From a virus, in the IMG/VR virus record IMGVR_UViG_3300045988_115336, positions 1 through 41,698 of that record: a DNA stretch of 41,698 nt; one strand, given 5' to 3'. This document shows, piece after piece, positions 1-41,698 of the stretch. Below the pieces are notes generated by a model that had not been told where the DNA came from, did no database searches, and worked only from the letters and a program-made list of their open reading frames with translations. Numbering within the stretch: the stretch's first letter is position 1; every line of letters begins with the position of its first letter. The translations under genes and the position numbers were made by a program.

Positions 1-55
1 AAACCATCCTAAATATATAAGAAAAACTGTAAAATGTGATTATTGTGGAAAAAAA
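1..55. repeat. Terminal overlap: bases 1-55 are identical to 41644-41698, indicating a circular or circularly permuted contig
   Basis: Direct comparison of both ends shows an exact 55/55 match. An ORF reads through the junction without a stop. Confidence 0.95.
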
Positions 56-2829: not shown

Positions 2830-3389
2830 TGGCAACAGAGGTAACACTTAACCAACATGCACTTTCAGATGTGGCATGTGTAGAAATAGTTACAGAAGAT
2901 GAAAAAAGTTATACATTTGAAACTGCTTCAGAAGTAGGGATAGAAGAAGTGCTAGACGAAGGCGATGAACAAACTTTAAAAATAAAAAATGTATTATATG
3001 CGAATAGAAAAGCAGAAGATACATTATTAGGACACGATTTAACATTTACAGATAATCTTATGTGTCCTGAATTATTGGAGTTATTCCAAGGTGGTACGTT
3101 GACACCAGGGGAAGGTGGTAAATTCACATATACACCTCCAGCAATAGGGACAAAAGCAACTAAAAAGAAATTTACATGCAATATATATACTTGCGAAGTA
3201 TCAACAGATGGAGATACTGGAAAATATATAAAAGTATCTTATCCAAGTTGTGAGGGAACTAGCGTACCTTTTACGTTTAAAGATGGGGAATATTACACTA
3301 ATGAATATGTAATAAAATCTAGACCAGCTAAAAATGCAGCGCCTTATACAGCTTCTTTAGTAGATGCATTACCGACAACTGCTGTATAA
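2829..3389 (+). CDS. Major tail protein
   Basis: 186 aa. It lies immediately before the chaperone pair and tape measure, and is followed by an attenuator-type hairpin. Confidence 0.65.
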   Translation: MATEVTLNQHALSDVACVEIVTEDEKSYTFETASEVGIEEVLDEGDEQTLKIKNVLYANRKAEDTLLGHDLTFTDNLMCPELLELFQGGTLTPGEGGKFTYTPPAIGTKATKKKFTCNIYTCEVSTDGDTGKYIKVSYPSCEGTSVPFTFKDGEYYTNEYVIKSRPAKNAAPYTASLVDALPTTAV

Positions 3390-4152: not shown

Positions 4153-4938
4153 ATGAGAGAAATTTGGAAAAATATAAAAGGGTACGAAGGAAAATATATG
4201 GTAAGTACAGATGGAAGAGTGAAAAGTATCAATTATAAAAATTCAAGTAGCCCTAACATATTAAAACAAGGCTTAGATAAATATGGATATAAACAATTAA
4301 CTCTTTATTCAAATGGGAGTAAGAAAACATTTAAAGTACATAGACTAGTAGCAGAAACATTTTTAGAAAATCCTAAAAATTTACCTCAAATTAATCATAA
4401 AGATGAAAACAAACAAAATAACAAAGTAGAAAATTTAGAATTTTGCTCAGCTTCATACAATATAAATTATGGAACTAGAAATAAAAAAACATCGGAAAAG
4501 TTAAAAGTAATAAGAAAAACTACAAGCCCTGTAAGTGGAGAAAATAATCCTATGTATGGCAAGCATCATACAGATGAGACCAAAAGGAAAATAAGTGAAG
4601 CACGCAAGGGTAAATACGCAGGGAAAAACAACCCTATGTATGGCAAACATAGGAGTGATGAAGTTAAAGAAAAACTCAGTAAAGCAAATAAAGGCAAGAA
4701 ATTACCAAAAGAAACTAAAAAGAAAATAAGCGAAGCTAATAAAGGGGAAAAACATCCTCAAGCTAAAAAAGTTATCTGCATAACAACAGGAGAAATATTT
4801 AATTATATAAAAGAGGCAACACAAAAATATAATATAGATAATTCAAGTATTACAAAATGCTGTAAAGGGAAAAGAAAATCAAGTGGCAAACATCCTATAA
4901 CAGGTGAAAAACTTGAATGGGGTTATTATGTTGAATAA
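4153..4938 (+). CDS. Free-standing HNH homing endonuclease (NUMOD4-like N-terminus, HNH_3-like core, repeated NUMOD-type helices)
   Basis: WKNIKGYEGKYMVSTDGRV, HRLVAETF...INHKDENKQNN, and repeats of GxNNPMYGKH..E.K.K.S. It has an AGGAGG RBS. Confidence 0.8.
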   Translation: MREIWKNIKGYEGKYMVSTDGRVKSINYKNSSSPNILKQGLDKYGYKQLTLYSNGSKKTFKVHRLVAETFLENPKNLPQINHKDENKQNNKVENLEFCSASYNINYGTRNKKTSEKLKVIRKTTSPVSGENNPMYGKHHTDETKRKISEARKGKYAGKNNPMYGKHRSDEVKEKLSKANKGKKLPKETKKKISEANKGEKHPQAKKVICITTGEIFNYIKEATQKYNIDNSSITKCCKGKRKSSGKHPITGEKLEWGYYVE

Positions 4939-4960
4939 AATAAAATATTAAATTATATTA

Positions 4961-4985
4961 ACAGGGGTTAAGCCCTGTTTTTTTA
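4961..4985 (+). terminator. Rho-independent terminator after the HNH gene
   Basis: ACAGGG gttaag CCCTGT followed by TTTTTTT. Confidence 0.7.
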
Positions 4986-5018
4986 TTGAATAAATTTGAT
5001 GGGGAGGTGAAAAATCCG

Positions 5019-5063
5019 ATGAGTGTAAATTTAGGTACAGCTATAGGATATCTCTCGAGCTAG
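5019..5063 (+). CDS. Tape measure N-terminal segment in a different frame (14 codons, then TAG)
   Basis: Strong RBS (GGGGAGGTGA, with GGAGG 7 nt upstream of the ATG). It encodes MSVNLGTAIGYL, a typical tape measure N-terminus. The continuation ELDSSRW is in the frame reached by a net +2/-1 shift at CUCUC 5052-5056. Confidence 0.5.
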   Translation: MSVNLGTAIGYLSS

Positions 5064-5107
5064 ATTCTAGCAGATGGACTAATAGTTATACTACAGCTAG
5101 ACAACAA

Positions 5108-5368
5108 ATGCAAACATTAGCTGACAGTTCGCAAAGTATGGGGAGTAGGTTTCAAGCTGCAGGTTCTATGCTTACAAGTGCGGGTTCTACATTAACCACA
5201 CATGTAACATTACCATTAGTCGGCATTGGGGCTGCTTCGGTAAAAACTGCTGCTGATTTTGAAAGTAGTATGAGTAATGTACAGGCTTTATCTGGTGCAA
5301 CTGGGGGAGAATTACAACAATTATCTGATTTAGCAAAAGAAATGGGAGCAAGTACACAATTTAGTGCT
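5108..5368 (+). CDS. Tape measure protein, exon 1 (frame open from 5000; first ATG at 5108 has no RBS)
   Basis: It encodes ...KEMGASTQFSA, the conserved tape measure core. The frame then reads into the intron and stops at 5387-5389. Confidence 0.8.
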
Positions 5369-5568
5369 AAAAAAAGATTGGCACACTAAATAGAAATATT
5401 TAGAAAAAATAAGCGAGCAATATCGGTAAAACACGTAACTGATTATTAAAATATGATATAATATAGTTAGGGATAGTTAAGGAAGTCGCGAGCCTTAATG
5501 AAAAGAAAGTTATCCGAGCTTTCTTCCCTGTTGATTAATCGGATGGATACTATCGGAGGTGTTTAAAA

Positions 5569-6402
5569 ATGAATTATAAAATTTGTTCAAAATGTAAAGA
5601 ATTAAAACCTTTAGATGCTTTTGAAAAAAGTAATTCTTGTAAAGATGGGCATAGAGGAACTTGTAAACAATGTAGACAAGAACAAAAAAATAAAAAACAT
5701 CAATTACAGTGTGAAGTATGTGGGGAAAAATTTACAAGTTCTAGAAAAGAAGCTAAATATTGCAGTGAAAAATGCCAACATTTAGCACGTAGAAATAGAG
5801 TAAAAGTGAAATGTTCATATTGTGGGAAAGAGCTAGAAGTTATAAAGTCAAAAGCAGACAGTCAAGAATATTTTTATTGTAATCAACAATGTAGAACAGA
5901 ACATTTAAAAACAATAATGAAAGGTACAAATAATCCTAACTTCAACAAAGTAAAATATAATTGTGATGGATGCAATAAAGAAATTTATATAAATCCTTAT
6001 AAAATAAAATCTCAAAAACATATATTTTGTTCTGAGGAATGTTACATAAAAAATATAGGTAAATTTTACAAAGGTGAAAATAATTCTAATTGGAATAAAA
6101 ATCTAACCTCAGAAGAAAGAGAATTAAAAAGAAGATATCCTAAATATTATGAATGGAGAAACAAAGTGTATGAGAGAGATAATTACACTTGCCAAATTTG
6201 TGGAAGTAGTAAGAGTGGAACATTAATAGCGCATCATTTAAATGGATATAACTGGGATATAGAGCATAGGACAGATATTGATAATGGAATAACTTTATGT
6301 ACTAGATGCCATAATGAATTTCATAATAAATTTGGATGCGGGAATAATACAAAAGAACAATTTGAACAATTTTTAAATATTAAATTACAAGTGTCTTTAT
6401 AA
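5569..6402 (+). CDS. Intron-encoded HNH endonuclease with N-terminal Cys4 zinc-ribbon-like modules
   Basis: GGAGGTG RBS. Repeated CxxC...CxxxC modules and a C-terminal HNH motif (CQICG...HHLNGY...NGITLC..CH). Confidence 0.85.
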   Translation: MNYKICSKCKELKPLDAFEKSNSCKDGHRGTCKQCRQEQKNKKHQLQCEVCGEKFTSSRKEAKYCSEKCQHLARRNRVKVKCSYCGKELEVIKSKADSQEYFYCNQQCRTEHLKTIMKGTNNPNFNKVKYNCDGCNKEIYINPYKIKSQKHIFCSEECYIKNIGKFYKGENNSNWNKNLTSEERELKRRYPKYYEWRNKVYERDNYTCQICGSSKSGTLIAHHLNGYNWDIEHRTDIDNGITLCTRCHNEFHNKFGCGNNTKEQFEQFLNIKLQVSL

Positions 6403-6414
6403 GACACTTTTTTT
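6391..6414 (+). terminator. Terminator-like hairpin at the end of the intron ORF
   Basis: GTGTCTT tat AAGACAC followed by TTTTTTT, overlapping the HNH stop codon. Confidence 0.45.
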
Positions 6415-6645
6415 ATACAAATAATCAGATGTCAATACCGAGATAACTTTATAGATTGCGAAAGGCTATAAAGTATCGTAGAGCGTAGATAGTGAATAAA
6501 TATAATCTATCCAAGAGTGTTCGCCACCTTACCATTAAGTTGAAGGTGAAAATGTACGCCAAACTGGGTTTGAAATGACAAACCGATGAAAATGAGGGAA
6601 ACCTCCAGAGGTTAGGATAAAAAGCCTAACGATAATAACGATTTG

Positions 6646-6783
6646 AGTCAATGTGCAGATGCTCTTAGCTACATGGCATTAGCTGGTTGGGACACTCAAC
6701 AATCAATGGATGCACTTCCAGGGGTATTAAACCTTGCTGCTGCATCGGGTATGGATTTAGCAAATGCCAGCGACGCGGTGACT
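6646..6783 (+). CDS. Tape measure protein, exon 2 (46 codons)
   Basis: An open 138-nt frame encodes SQCADALSYMALAGWDTQQSMDALPGVLNLAAASGMDLANASDAVT, a conserved tape measure core. It has no start codon. Confidence 0.8.
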
Positions 6784-7208
6784 AAAAAATATTGGTCGGT
6801 TACTTGGAAACAAGTAGCATAAAGCATCGAGGAAAAACGGGGAAGGTTAAACTTTGTTTAAAGATATCGTTACCCTTGAAAATACTAATTATATATCAAA
6901 TTAAGGAATTTTTAAACAAGCAAATTAATCCCGTGACAAACTAAGAAATTAAAAAATCTTAGTCGTTGTAGAGCGTAGGTATTGAACCTATGCTTTTTAT
7001 TTTTAAAAAGTGTAGAATATAATATACCCACGAGTCCTCGACACGATTATATATAGGATAATCTGAAAACCTAACGTAAAACGAGGGTGAAAAGGTACGC
7101 CAAACTAGGTATGAAATGACATACCGATGAGATAAGGAATTGCACAACTTATCAAATGAGGGAAACTTCTAGAGGTTGAGATAAAAAGCTCAACGTTAAT
7201 AACAAATG
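6784..7208 (+). mobile_element. Group-I-type intron TMP-i2 (425 nt, ORF-less)
   Basis: The 5' splice site follows U6783, and UGACU pairs with GGUCG at 6794-6798. The intron ends ...TAATAACAAATG. Joining the exons gives SDAVT|DILSAFG. Its core is homologous to TMP-i1 and MCP-i2. Confidence 0.8.
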
Positions 7209-9953
7209 GATATTTTAAGTGCATTTGGGATGCAAGCAAGTGATGCAGGAATGGCAGCAGACCAATTTGCATATGCACAAGCTAACGCAAATACAAGTGC
7301 AGACCAATTAACAGAAGCGATGGCTAACTGTGGTGTTAATGCTAATGGATTTGGACAAGATTTAACACAAACGAATGCAGTATTGATGGCCTTATCTAAT
7401 GAAATGCTAAAAGGTGCACCAGCTGGTACAGCATTATCTGCGGTATTTAGAGATATGGGTAATGCAATGGAAAATGGTTCTATTCAAATAGGCAAGACAA
7501 AAGTAAAGATTACTGATGCCAATGGGGACTTCCTAGATATGACAGATATCTTAAAAGGAGTAGAAGAAGCTACAGACGGCATGAGTGAATCAGAGCGACA
7601 AGCTGCTCTATCTTCTACTTTTACAGCAGATAGTATAAAAGCTATGGGAATACTTTTAAATGAAGGTAGTGACAAAGTTGCTGGATATGCAGATCAACTA
7701 GAAAATTGTGGTGGTAGTGCTGAAAAAATGGCCGAAGTTATGAATGATAACCTTAATGGTCAAATAACTGCATTAAAATCAGCTTTAGAAGGTGCTGCAA
7801 TATCTATTGGTGAAGCATTATTGCCAATGATAAAAGGATTAGTAAGTGTGTTACAAGGCGCTTTAACTTGGTTTAATGGACTTAATAGCGGTGTTAAAAC
7901 AACTATAGTCACAGTAGGATTAGTAGTTGCAGCTATAGGGCCATTATTATTAATTCTAGGCTCTTTAGCAAGTGCAATAGGAAACTTAATAGAGCTGAGG
8001 GCATTGATGACTGAGTCTAGTGTGTTAAGTAGTGCGATAAGTAGAGTATCAGGACTATTTACTAGTTTAAGAAATGTGATTATAGGTTCGGTAATACCGG
8101 CTATACAATCATTATGGGCATTTATGCTAGCTAATCCAATAACTATAGTAATAGCAGCAATAGCAGCATTAGTTGCTGGATTTATATATCTTTGGAATAA
8201 CTGTGAAAGTTTTAGAAATTTCTGGCTTAATCTATGGGATAACATAGTTGAAGCAGTTGGCAAAGCTCCAGCAAGTGTTCAAGCTGCTTTTAATTCTATT
8301 ATGAATGTATTTAATGGAATAAAAACTTTTTTGGGTGACTTAGTTGGTGGAATAAAAACATTACTAGGAGACCTATTTAGTGGCAACTTCGGTAAATTAT
8401 CAGAAGATGTTCAAAAGCTAGGGAAACAATTACAAAAAGATTTTCAAAATATAATAGTGAGTTTAAGAAAATCTTTATTAGATGGAACAAATGCATTGAA
8501 AGATGCTTTTAGTAACGGATTAGCAACATTATTAGATCCTATAATAAATTGGGGTTATAGTGTTAATGGTTATTTTGGCGATGCTTTTACAGATTTATAC
8601 GGAACAATAGAAGATACTTTCAGTTTGATAGTAGACTATATAAGAGATTCAATATCTATTATGATTAGTATTTTTACTGGAGACTGGCAAGGGGCTTTGC
8701 AAGGTGTACAAAACTTATTTTCTAATTTAGGCAATAATATAATGACTATACTATCAGATTTATGGAACTTTATATCAGAAATATTTATGGGTATAGGACA
8801 AGTAATAGTCGATAAATTGTCTGAAGTAGGAACTAATATATCAAATTGGTTTACAAATACTTATAATTCATTTATACAATGGTGTACAAACCTTATAACA
8901 GGTATAGGACAATGGTTTAATGAATTGCCTTCTAGAATAGGATATGCATTAGGTTTAGCACTTGGAACAATAACAAGTTGGGTAGTAAATACATATAATT
9001 ATTTTGCAACTAATATACCACTTTGGATAGAGTCTATAGGACAATGGTTCTCTCAGTTGCCTTCTAGAATAGGTCAATGGCTAACAAATACATACAACAA
9101 TGTAGTTAGCTGGGGAAGTAACATGTTATCAAAAGCACAAGAGACTGGCTCAAATTTTGTTAATAATATGATTAGTTTTATACAAAATTTACCGAGCAAT
9201 GTAGCAAGCTGGTTATCTCAAACTTATAACAAAGCAGTTAACTGGGCTTCACAAATGGCATCAAAAGCACGTGAAGCTGGCTCAAACTTTATAAAAAATG
9301 TTATAAGTGCAATACAAAACTTGCCAAGTAAAGTATGGAGTTTATTGTCTCAAGCAATAAGTAAAGCTGCTAATTTTGTATCTCAATTCGGTCAAAAAGC
9401 TACTCAAGCTGGTAGAACATTTACAACAAATATAGTAAATGGAGTTAAGAGCATTCCAAGTAAAATGGTAAGTATAGGTAGCAATATAGTAAAAGGTATA
9501 TGGTCAGGTATTAGTGGGGCTGGAAGTTGGTTAAGAAGTCAAATTAGTAACTTTGCAAGTAATATTGTAAAAGGATTTAAATCCTCATTCAAAATTAACT
9601 CACCTTCTAAGATAATGAGAGATATAATCGGTAAAGGTATTGTAGAAGGTATAGGAGTTGGTATAGACAACGAAGAAGATAGTTTATTGACAAAAGCAGA
9701 TAAACTAGCAGGTAATGTAGTTGACACAATGAATGGTAATATTGCTACTACAAATTTATTTGACACTGCTAAGAGCTTAACAGATAGTATGGCGATAGCT
9801 AATCAAACTAATAGTAGTCAAGAAAATAACACAAATAGATTTGCTAGCTTATTACATATAGAAAACTTAACTATAAACGATGATAAGGACATAGAAACTC
9901 TAGCGAATGATTTAGCGTTTTATTTAAAAAGAAAAAACGTATTAACAGTATAA
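7209..9953 (+). CDS. Tape measure protein, exon 3
   Basis: 914 codons: DILSAFGMQASDA..., a hydrophobic central segment and long repeat-rich helices. The annotated ATG at 7206 lies inside the intron 3' end and has no RBS. Confidence 0.85.
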   Translation, partial: DILSAFGMQASDAGMAADQFAYAQANANTSADQLTEAMANCGVNANGFGQDLTQTNAVLMALSNEMLKGAPAGTALSAVFRDMGNAMENGSIQIGKTKVKITDANGDFLDMTDILKGVEEATDGMSESERQAALSSTFTADSIKAMGILLNEGSDKVAGYADQLENCGGSAEKMAEVMNDNLNGQITALKSALEGAAISIGEALLPMIKGLVSVLQGALTWFNGLNSGVKTTIVTVGLVVAAIGPLLLILGSLASAIGNLIELRALMTESSVLSSAISRVSGLFTSLRNVIIGSVIPAIQSLWAFMLANPITIVIAAIAALVAGFIYLWNNCESFRNFWLNLWDNIVEAVGKAPASVQAAFNSIMNVFNGIKTFLGDLVGGIKTLLGDLFSGNFGKLSEDVQKLGKQLQKDFQNIIVSLRKSLLDGTNALKDAFSNGLATLLDPIINWGYSVNGYFGDAFTDLYGTIEDTFSLIVDYIRDSISIMISIFTGDWQGALQGVQNLFSNLGNNIMTILSDLWNFISEIFMGIGQVIVDKLSEVGTNISNWFTNTYNSFIQWCTNLITGIGQWFNELPSRIGYALGLALGTITSWVVNTYNYFATNIPLWIESIGQWFSQLPSRIGQWLTNTYNNVVSWGSNMLSKAQETGSNFVNNMISFIQNLPSNVASWLSQTYNKAVNWASQMASKAREAGSNFIKNVISAIQNLPSKVWSLLSQAISKAANFVSQFGQKATQAGRTFTTNIVNGVKSIPSKMVSIGSNIVKGIWSGISGAGSWLRSQISNFASNIVKGFKSSFKINSPSKIMRDIIGKGIVEGIGVGIDNEEDSLLTKADKLAGNVVDTMNGNIATTNLFDTAKSLTDSMAIANQTNSSQENNTNRFASLLHIENLTINDDKDIETLANDLAFYLKRKNVLTV

Positions 9954-40734: not shown

Positions 40735-40894
40735 ATGTCAACAACAAAAATTGCAGATTTAATAAATCCAGAAGTAATGGCAGATATGATTTCAGCCAAA
40801 ATAGAAAAAAAATTAGTGGTTACACCATTTGCTAAAATAGATACTACATTAGTAGGGCAACCAGGAAATACTATAACAGTTCCACAATATGCGT
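40735..40894 (+). CDS. Major capsid protein, exon 1
   Basis: AGGAAGGTGA RBS. It encodes MSTTKIADLINPEVMADMI...GQPGNTITVPQYA, a conserved capsid N-terminus, and the frame hits TAA right after this point. Confidence 0.85.
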
Positions 40895-41172
40895 AAAAAT
40901 ATGCGCCTTTACATAGTGATATGTATTGCAAACCCTTTTAATTGCTGGAAACTCCTAAAGAGTTCATCTCACTTTAGGACAATCAGCAGCGAAGATTCAT
41001 TAAATATATATTTAATGAATAACGTTCAACGACTAGCCGAAAGGCGTACACCCAAGTGGGTGGAAATGGAGGGCAACTCAAGGAGTTGATGATATAGTCT
41101 AATCTATATAGTAATATATAGCAGTTCATAAGAGAACGATACAAGATTAACGACCTTGTATGAATGTAAATG
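40895..41172 (+). mobile_element. Group I intron MCP-i1 (278 nt, ORF-less)
   Basis: GCGU/GCGC forms P1 with a U.G pair. ACGACUA ... AUAGUC forms a P7-like pair. There are several hairpins, GNRA loops and a terminal G. Joining the exons gives PQYA|YIGDAVDVAEG. Confidence 0.85.
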
Positions 41173-41275: not shown

Positions 41276-41698
41276 AAATTAATTCTGCCGTCTTCTTTAG
41301 AAATAAAGAAGTAATAAATTAACCAAAATCGGTAAAGGCTAAATATTTTATTATTTATGAAATTGAATTAACGGACTAAGCACTCAATATGTTATAATAT
41401 TATTGAGGTGATTAAGTTGAAAAAAATATGTCAATGTTGTAATAAAGAGTATAATGCAAAACGAAGTTCTTCAAAATATTGTTCTAAAGAATGTCAAATA
41501 AAAGCTAGAACGAAAAAAGTTAAAGTACAATGTAGCTATTGTAAAAAAGAAATAGAACGTAAAGCTTGTCATATGAAATACGAAAAGCACTTCTGTAATA
41601 ATGAATGTAGAGGTAAATGGATGAGTGAAAATTTAGTAGCAGAAAACCATCCTAAATATATAAGAAAAACTGTAAAATGTGATTATTGTGGAAAAAAA
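41276..41698 (+). mobile_element. 5' portion of group-I-type intron MCP-i2 (continues at base 56 on the circle)
   Basis: The 5' splice site follows U41275, and GCGGU pairs with GCCGU at 41287-91. It contains the start of the HNH ORF. Confidence 0.8.
41417..41698 (+). CDS. Intron-encoded HNH endonuclease, N-terminal part (runs off the window; continues at 56..520)
   Basis: TTG start 6 nt after GAGGTG. MKKICQCCNKEY... has Cys4 modules homologous to 5569-6402. There is no stop codon before the window end. Confidence 0.8.
   Translation, partial: MKKICQCCNKEYNAKRSSSKYCSKECQIKARTKKVKVQCSYCKKEIERKACHMKYEKHFCNNECRGKWMSENLVAENHPKYIRKTVKCDYCGKK

Follow-up and report, generated by a model that had tools for sequence, protein, structure and literature searches.

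The interrupted tape measure gene

The window analysed here is the whole of a 41,698-nucleotide (nt) viral DNA, IMG/VR virus record IMGVR_UViG_3300045988_115336, and this report concerns a 1277 nt insert at 5369–6645, TMP-i1, that interrupts a TP901-type tape measure gene. The reading frame of that gene is broken twice, after 5368 and again after ...SDAVT at 6783, and the gene consists of three exons and two intervening sequences, all of them, like the parts of TMP-i1 described below, on the strand presented (+). Exon 1 (5019–5368) is preceded by the ribosome binding site (RBS) GGGGAGGTG at 5001–5009 and has an ATG at 5019 and its first in-frame ATG at 5108; it ends with ...KEMGASTQFSA at 5368, from where the frame runs into the insert as KKRLAH and then stops. 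Exon 2 (6646–6783) is an in-frame segment of 138 nt whose 46 codons encode SQCADAL...SDAVT; it opens with SQCADALSYMALAGWD..., it is without a Shine-Dalgarno sequence, and its sole "start" is a mechanical TTG at 6643. The frame resumes for the second time at 7209, and exon 3 (7209–9953) extends from DILSAFG... through the stop codon. The original prediction, which was made from the sequence without database searches, had described an exon 1 that ends in this way with a frame that dies soon after, a conserved core that resumes at 6646 without a start codon or RBS, and an element that ends at G6645, and all of this can be read in the sequence, where the insert ends as ...GATAATAACGATTTG with G6645 as its terminal nucleotide.

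Relatives that are without one or both of the inserts locate their boundaries exactly. In Logan contig L004, whose flanks are 91–98% identical to those of the window, the equivalent of 5368 is joined straight to that of 6646, and the second insert is present and carries a 291-amino-acid (aa) HNH gene. Contig L005 has neither insert, and in contig L006 the first insert is present, 98.5% identical, while 6783 is followed directly by 7209. Exon 2 is joined to exon 1 in L004 and L005 and to exon 3 in L005 and L006, and the relatives show all four presence/absence combinations of the two inserts. This comparison therefore fixes the inserts at 5369–6645 and at 6784–7208 (TMP-i2, 138 nt downstream of TMP-i1), and such boundaries are far beyond chance. 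The candidate intron-less target site in L005 reads AATTTAGTGCG|AGTCAATGTGC. When 25 kb was compared with the GenBank phages by megablast, just short intron-like matches and no close relative came up, and scans for the 5' end of TMP-i1 (GCTAAAAAAAGATTGGCACAC) found no copy in IMG/VR and, among genomes, one chance 21-mer in a Virgibacillus metagenome-assembled genome.

When both inserts are removed conceptually, the encoded protein gives a single PF10145 match that covers positions 1–200 of 201 (E 1e-43) and a TIGR01760 "tape_meas_TP901" match over positions 3–278 (E 1e-49); with exon 3 alone, the PF10145 match begins only at profile position 63. Uninterrupted homologues came up when the N-terminus of the conceptually spliced protein served as query, and one of these, P0002, which is 89% identical, reads FSASQCADAL and DAVTDILSAFG across the two junctions (TQFSASQCADAL and SDAVTDILSAFG). 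The identification of the host gene as a TP901-type tape measure gene, with the insert in its conserved N-terminal core, is supported by these matches, and the comparison with the TP901 family that had been proposed as a check favours the FSA|SQCADAL junction. The predicted size of the spliced protein, about 1047 aa, is correct if TMP-i2 is also removed and the count starts at ATG 5108, and is incorrect otherwise. For annotation this means that one three-exon tape measure gene and one intron-encoded HNH gene should be recorded, not three fragments.

Fold and family of TMP-i1

The structure of TMP-i1 was tested directly, and the family was scored by an nhmmer sequence profile together with explicit pair counts. 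The insert has the group I helix order P3-P4-P5-P6-P7-P3'-P8-P7', which gives the P3/P7 pseudoknot, and every one of its helices, including P1, P10, P2 through P9.2 and P9.0, is 100% paired. Near its 5' end a guide sequence, GAUU|GGCAC (5376–5384), is complementary to both exons: GGCAC (5380–5384) pairs with GUGCU at the end of exon 1 (5364–5368) in P1 (5/5 pairs), and GAUU (5376–5379) pairs with AGUC (6646–6649), the first four bases of exon 2, in P10 (4/4), which adjoins P1 on the guide. The 5' splice site follows the U of the U5368·G5380 wobble in P1, a site that is fixed independently by the intron-less alleles. The P1 pairing with its splice-site U·G is as originally predicted, and P10, P9.0 and the related second intron are additions to that account.

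In the remainder of the 5' half, P2 is a hairpin (5386–5403, CUAAAUA-GAAA-UAUUUAG, 7/7) with a GAAA tetraloop, P3 pairs 5413–5419 with 6518–6524 (7/7) and is followed by a J3/4 of AUA, P4 pairs 5423–5428 with 6436–6441 (6/6), P5 pairs 5433–5434 with 6431–6432 (2/2), and P5a pairs 5439–5447 with 6420–6428 (9/9) and holds 5448–6419 in its loop. The 3' catalytic half (6420–6645, from P5a' to the terminal G6645) contains P6 (6446–6474), P7 (GCGUA at 6483–6487 with UACGC at 6555–6559), P7.1 (6488–6511), P8 (6525–6548), P9.0 (AA at 6562–6563 with UU at 6643–6644, 2/2), and P9, P9.1 and P9.2 (6567–6584, 6594–6605 and 6611–6630, respectively). We give the intron as IA-type; of the additional helices P7.1 and P7.2 that mark subgroup IA2, its P7-P3' interval has one covarying hairpin, P7.1, and no separate P7.2 was identified there.

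By blastn, the same 3' core is present in other phages as well, namely in JCL1032, in the gyrA introns of AR9, and in the split genes for terminase in vB_CpeS-1181 and for tape measure in CBP1, and the P9.1 motif ATGAGGGAAACNTCNAGAG has at least 118 matching stretches in IMG/VR. TMP-i1 and TMP-i2 are also related to one another, with 73% mean column identity in their 3' halves and compensatory changes in hairpins. When 16 compact, independent IMG/VR members without an open reading frame (ORF) were aligned, 95.4% of cells were paired versus 33–45% with the partners slid, 41 of the 60 pairs change on both sides, and not one of 500 shuffles attained these figures. Across the 16 members pairing is complete (100%) in both P3 and P7, where compensatory changes also occur, confirming the pseudoknot, and P9.0 also covaries in the family (84% of cells paired, both pairs changing on both sides). 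The long-range P3 pairing was examined by an alignment-independent comparison of the 7 nt upstream of the J3/4-P4 motif with each member's own P3', strands that are more than 1 kb apart in some members; 44 of 74 members (27 distinct sequences) are complementary at all seven positions, versus 2.85% in the cross-member control. An unrestricted search for P3/P4 partners was dropped in favour of this motif-anchored test because 13-mers that tolerate G·U pairs arise by chance in 1.8 kb.

A profile made from IMG/VR members only matches TMP-i1 over 6427–6643 with E 2e-57 and TMP-i2 with E 2.5e-34. Among the matches listed, 18 of 100 unique family copies precede tape measure core sequence, at no fewer than eight distinct sites; the TMP-i2 site is occupied by seven family copies, and the TMP-i1 site is occupied in the window and L006 only. 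Many family members have ORFs of about 0.8–1.1 kb at the position where TMP-i1 has one, and the ORF-less members have a short P5a loop.

The P5a loop of TMP-i1 holds an endonuclease expression cassette, a 972 nt insertion at 5448–6419 that lies between the two P5a strands and leaves the core undisturbed. Its HNH homing endonuclease gene (5569–6402) encodes 277 aa with N-terminal CxxC repeats and an HNH motif at residues 208–254, where PF01844 matches with E 5e-6, above the curated cut-off; phrog_1271, "HNH endonuclease", matches with E 1e-28, and the HNH endonuclease of PDB entry 5h0m with E 5.6e-5. The gene has its own Shine-Dalgarno sequence, GGAGGTG (5555–5561), with a 7 nt spacer to ATG 5569. 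The size, nature and RBS of this endonuclease are those originally predicted, and the prediction of an HNH-bearing group I intron in a tape measure gene agrees with the intron-less relatives, the full structure, the covariation and the restored PF10145 and TIGR01760 matches. The HNH protein is 37% identical to that of intron 2 in L004 and 45% identical to that of a capsid gene intron of this genome (discussed below).

Among phages of Gram-positive bacteria, JCL1032 and prophages of the B. cereus group have previously been found to carry group I introns in their tape measure genes; TMP-i1 adds another, and it leaves existing knowledge of group I introns unchanged. The terminase and tape measure introns of the Lactobacillus delbrueckii phage JCL1032, which were reported to be self-splicing (Riipinen & Alatossava 2004, as cited in PMC6669764), belong to the same RNA family as TMP-i1; the family profile matches them with E 3e-18 and 7e-9, respectively, and both genes are annotated as joined coding sequences (CDSs) in EU409559. 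The terminase intron has the same core layout (P3, J3/4 AAA, P4 UCGGUR, P6 with a GAUUGCGAAAGGC loop, P7, P7.1, CCAMGAG, P3', P8, P7', P9.x). One of the two JCL1032 introns is also within the PF10145 core, but the site of the tape measure intron differs (approximately ...ANRG|..., about 70 codons downstream of the position of TMP-i2 in the window), as does its P7 (GACUA/UAGUC versus GCGUA/UACGC in TMP-i1). Unlike TMP-i1, the JCL1032 introns matched are short and have no large P5a ORF, and their host phage is different from that of the window.

Tourasse & Kolstø (2008, PMC2504315) described IA1 and IA2 group I introns at three tape measure sites (TMP-IVS1–3) in B. cereus-group prophages. Among them are related introns at different sites with adapted P1 guides, some copies have no complete endonuclease gene, and their presence or absence varies among related prophages. 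Likened by description, they share with the window several introns per tape measure gene, adapted guides and endonuclease loss; their hosts are Bacillus, whereas the window is a Clostridia-like phage of 31% GC. The introns of Bacillus phage AR9/PBS1 (KU878088) in gyrA, which is recorded as a joined CDS in three parts, have a P9, P9.1 and P9.2 domain that is 84% identical to that of TMP-i1 over about 95 nt, but their P3-P6 half differs in sequence and they have no ORF. Several self-splicing group I introns close together in one phage gene are also found in orf142 of Staphylococcus phage Twort, which differs from the window in gene and phage type; it has three such introns according to Landthaler & Shub 1999 (as listed in PMC6669764), the title of which reports exon skipping. 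Since exon 2 of the window is an in-frame 138 nt, its skipping is conceivable; the P10 of TMP-i1 does not match exon 3, and we found no evidence for exon skipping.

Predicted splicing and homing, and alternative explanations

The anatomy of TMP-i1 suggests how it would be removed. The transcript would fold into the group I core, and the guide, 5'-GAUU|GGCAC-3', would keep both exons in place, GUGCU of exon 1 through P1 and AGUC of exon 2 through P10. The first attack, after U5368, would come from an external guanosine in the P7 binding site; the terminal G6645, placed by the P9.0 pairing of AA 6562–6563 with UU 6643–6644, would then replace the external guanosine, and the free 3'-OH of U5368 would attack after G6645 and so join ...FSA in frame to SQCADAL.... 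The full protein would require the removal of TMP-i2 as well. Homology with the JCL1032 introns, which are reported as self-splicing, lends indirect support to a guanosine-initiated self-splicing of TMP-i1. By analogy with other intron-encoded HNH enzymes, the HNH product would cut or nick intron-less tape measure alleles in a mixed infection, and repair from the intron-bearing copy would spread the intron (homing); the presence/absence polymorphism with exact boundaries in close relatives and the candidate target in L005 are indirect evidence for site-specific cleavage of this kind. We place at about 0.9 the probability that 5369–6645 is a mobile, self-splicing group I (IA-type) intron in the core of a TP901-type tape measure gene.

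Several points weigh against this conclusion: the argument for splicing is drawn from anatomy, Rfam model RF00028 fails to detect the intron, a terminator-like hairpin lies within it, and the tape measure frame is broken near its start. A cmsearch with RF00028 had been proposed as a check by the original prediction; the model has no match to either tape measure intron at its gathering threshold of 50 bits over the whole window or at E<=10 over 4900–7400 and 6770–7225, and it detects a different intron in the same genome, at 40885–41121, with 112.8 bits. The terminase intron of JCL1032, reported to be self-splicing, likewise goes unmatched by RF00028 at E<=10, and the model misses all family copies in 20 IMG/VR loci, where its two matches are to neighbouring introns of another type. 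Because the model misses these introns, its negative result is uninformative for TMP-i1; the failure is a coverage gap of the model and not evidence against a group I intron. Introns of this family are probably under-annotated in phage genomes. RF00028 is blind to an abundant phage intron family, with the consequence that split structural genes in Firmicutes phages will often be mis-annotated, and a dedicated covariance model would fix this.

The terminator-like hairpin, AAGUGUCUU-UAU-AAGACACUU followed by U7 (6389–6416), overlaps the HNH stop codon and is inside the intron, upstream of the 3' catalytic half, so that it could truncate the pre-mRNA. It and the 972 nt insertion in P5a are what might be expected if TMP-i1 were decayed or cofactor-dependent, that is, if it spliced poorly alone, needed a host or phage protein, or were cut short by the internal terminator. 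We consider this improbable, since all core helices are perfect, including P1, P10 and P9.0, the L006 copy is 98.5% identical, the endonuclease ORF is intact and many members of the family have ORFs of 0.8–1.1 kb at the same position. Hairpins of this kind with U-runs are also found downstream of the ORF in L001, L021, L103 and L107, though not in every ORF-bearing member. It is still less probable that there is no RNA splicing and that a free-standing endonuclease gene has split the tape measure gene into separately translated pieces. Such elements are active in this genome, judging from the free-standing HNH_3/NUMOD gene just upstream (4153–4938), but the 46 codons of exon 2 have no start codon or RBS, the non-coding flanks, about 440 nt in all, form a group I core that covaries and are homologous to the JCL1032 introns reported as self-splicing, and P1 and P10 both pair at boundaries that obey the U...G rule. 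An intein or a group II intron, for which nothing speaks beyond the interruption of a conserved gene, has a negligible chance of being correct: the insert cannot be an intein because the host frame stops six codons into it and the HNH ORF, which has an RBS and an ATG to itself, is no part of the translated host protein, the Pfam scan found no reverse transcriptase domain, no group II RNA family was matched, and the fold is that of a group I intron.

The frame break concerns the gene and is compatible with the interpretation of TMP-i1 as an intron. Relative to L004, L005, P0006 and P0049, which read GYLEL... and are all without the extra 2 nt, the window has an additional TC in a (TC)3 run at 5051–5056, and as a result ATG 5019, with its strong RBS, is out of frame with exon 1. 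The MSVNLGTAVGYLELNSDRW of the relatives corresponds in the window to MSVNLGTAIGYLSS* in one frame and to SLELDSSRW in the following one; the ATG 5019 frame terminates at 5061–5063, and the exon 1 frame is without a start codon until ATG 5108, which has no RBS. A programmed -1 frameshift at A_AAU_UUA (5027–5033) was rejected because the homology of the relatives follows the ATG frame to GYL and switches only at the TC insertion. The extra TC is either genuine, and then inactivating, or an error of assembly. With its start codon, as assembled, out of frame with exon 1, the tape measure gene may be inactive in this genome. We think it unlikely, although clearly less so than the alternatives above, that the intron is real but sits in a non-functional gene, either because this is a defective variant genome or because the indel is an assembly error. 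The early stop, the lack of an RBS at ATG 5108, the four relatives and the nature of the window, a circular short-read-style assembly with a 55 nt terminal overlap, are in line with that possibility, but the remainder of the gene is intact over more than 1000 codons, the helices of both introns are essentially perfect, and a lone 2 nt indel could be an artefact of assembly or of the population. The original prediction held that, as tape measure length sets tail length, correct splicing is essential for a functional virion; we infer only that it would be so, and in a non-functional gene splicing would not rescue the virion.

The cassette leader, TMP-i2 and other mobile elements

The endonuclease cassette of TMP-i1 begins with a putative extended -10-like promoter, TGATATAAT (5454–5462); about 14 related cassettes have a conserved TGnTATAAT in this place, upstream of the leader. 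A generic sigma-70 scan did not list this element. The element is followed by a conserved, structured 5' leader at 5469–5546, in which an AGGGA/UCCCU stem closes two hairpins, H1 (5477–5498, with the loop AAGUCGCGAG) and H2 (5504–5524), and the H2 loop UUAUCCGA pairs with UCGGAUGG at 5539–5546 to form a pseudoknot. Compensatory changes are seen in H1 and in the pairing of the H2 loop with the linker. Copies of the leader are present at about 14 different IMG/VR loci, and in L001, always after TGnTATAAT and before the Shine-Dalgarno sequence and ATG of an intron ORF; nhmmer matches have E values of 1e-19 to 1e-39 in related cassettes with the exact search motif, and of 2e-10 and 5e-5 in two diverged copies. 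The leader (5469–5546) has no Rfam match. A role of the H2 loop as an anti-Shine-Dalgarno sequence is unsupported, as the loop forms a mean of 5.9 bp with its own region and 5.1 bp with the regions of other sequences. We tentatively propose, with somewhat less than even confidence, that this three-way junction with its invariant AAGUCGCGAG loop and covarying pseudoknot, which also precedes an unrelated ORF in the terminase intron of a Clostridium perfringens phage, is a portable cis-regulatory element for homing-endonuclease expression. The group I (IA2) intron of the phage T4 td gene likewise carries an endonuclease gene, that of I-TevI, in a peripheral loop, with its own promoter and a translation-controlling RNA structure. 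It differs from TMP-i1 in the type of endonuclease (GIY-YIG versus HNH) and the position of the ORF (P6a versus P5a), and its leader structure is unrelated.

In Clostridium phage vB_CpeS-1181 (L001, MW478292) the terminase large subunit is annotated as two CDSs with a "hypothetical protein" between them (1538–2707). An intron fills this gap. Its leader and the parts of its ribozyme share about 80% identity with those of TMP-i1, its ORF bears no resemblance to the HNH protein, and this pattern suggests an exchange of ORFs downstream of a common leader. In Caldibacillus phage CBP1 (L003, MF595878) the tape measure region is annotated as separate CDSs ("hypothetical protein" and "TMP repeat containing protein"), and the family profile matches the gap between them at about 2888–3143 with E 6e-35; this gap is probably an unannotated tape measure intron. 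At L072 9127–9955 and L075 3839–4290 a family intron is found within about 150–500 nt of an RF00028-type intron, and this suggests that other phage genes also have several introns of mixed types.

TMP-i2 (6784–7208) is a second, related group I intron with a P1 (UGACU with GGUCG) and P10 (AUAUU with GAUAU) of its own. Its P2, UACUUG-GAAA-CAAGUA (6801–6816), is analogous to that of TMP-i1, and its scored helices are perfectly paired except for P9.0 (1/2), P8 being outside the scoring. It corresponds to the second intron of L004 minus 858 nt, a deletion that removes the promoter-like element and nearly the whole ORF and leaves the last 12 codons of the endonuclease gene at 6906–6944; such a loss is in keeping with the cycle of gain and loss of homing elements. 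At 6970–6996 an alternative, terminator-like hairpin overlaps the 5' strand of its P7. The locus as a whole offers a compact natural series on the spread and decay of homing elements, with two sister introns that are distinguished by compensatory changes in nearly every helix.

The first and last 55 nt of the window (1–55 and 41644–41698) are identical, and it has the look of a complete assembly closed into a circle of about 41,643 bp. The RF00028-type group I intron mentioned above (40885–41121, 112.8 bits), the fourth of this genome, lies in the major capsid gene, whose start is at 40735. The third, a member of the TMP-i1 family, is in the same gene and spans the ends of the window, from 41283–41698 into 1–713, ending at about 713; its P3, J3/4 and P4 (TTAACCA-AAA-TCGGTA) are at 41319–41334, its HNH ORF extends from about 41418 to 520, and the profile matches its 3' core at 495–660 with E 3e-21. 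With two introns in the tape measure gene and two in the capsid gene, the group I introns of this genome of about 41.6 kb thus number at least four, spread over two structural genes. Finally, the free-standing endonuclease gene at 4153–4938, which encodes 261 aa with the domains HNH_3, NUMOD3 and NUMOD4, is situated between the tail chaperone genes and the tape measure gene and has its own terminator-like hairpin at 4960–4979.

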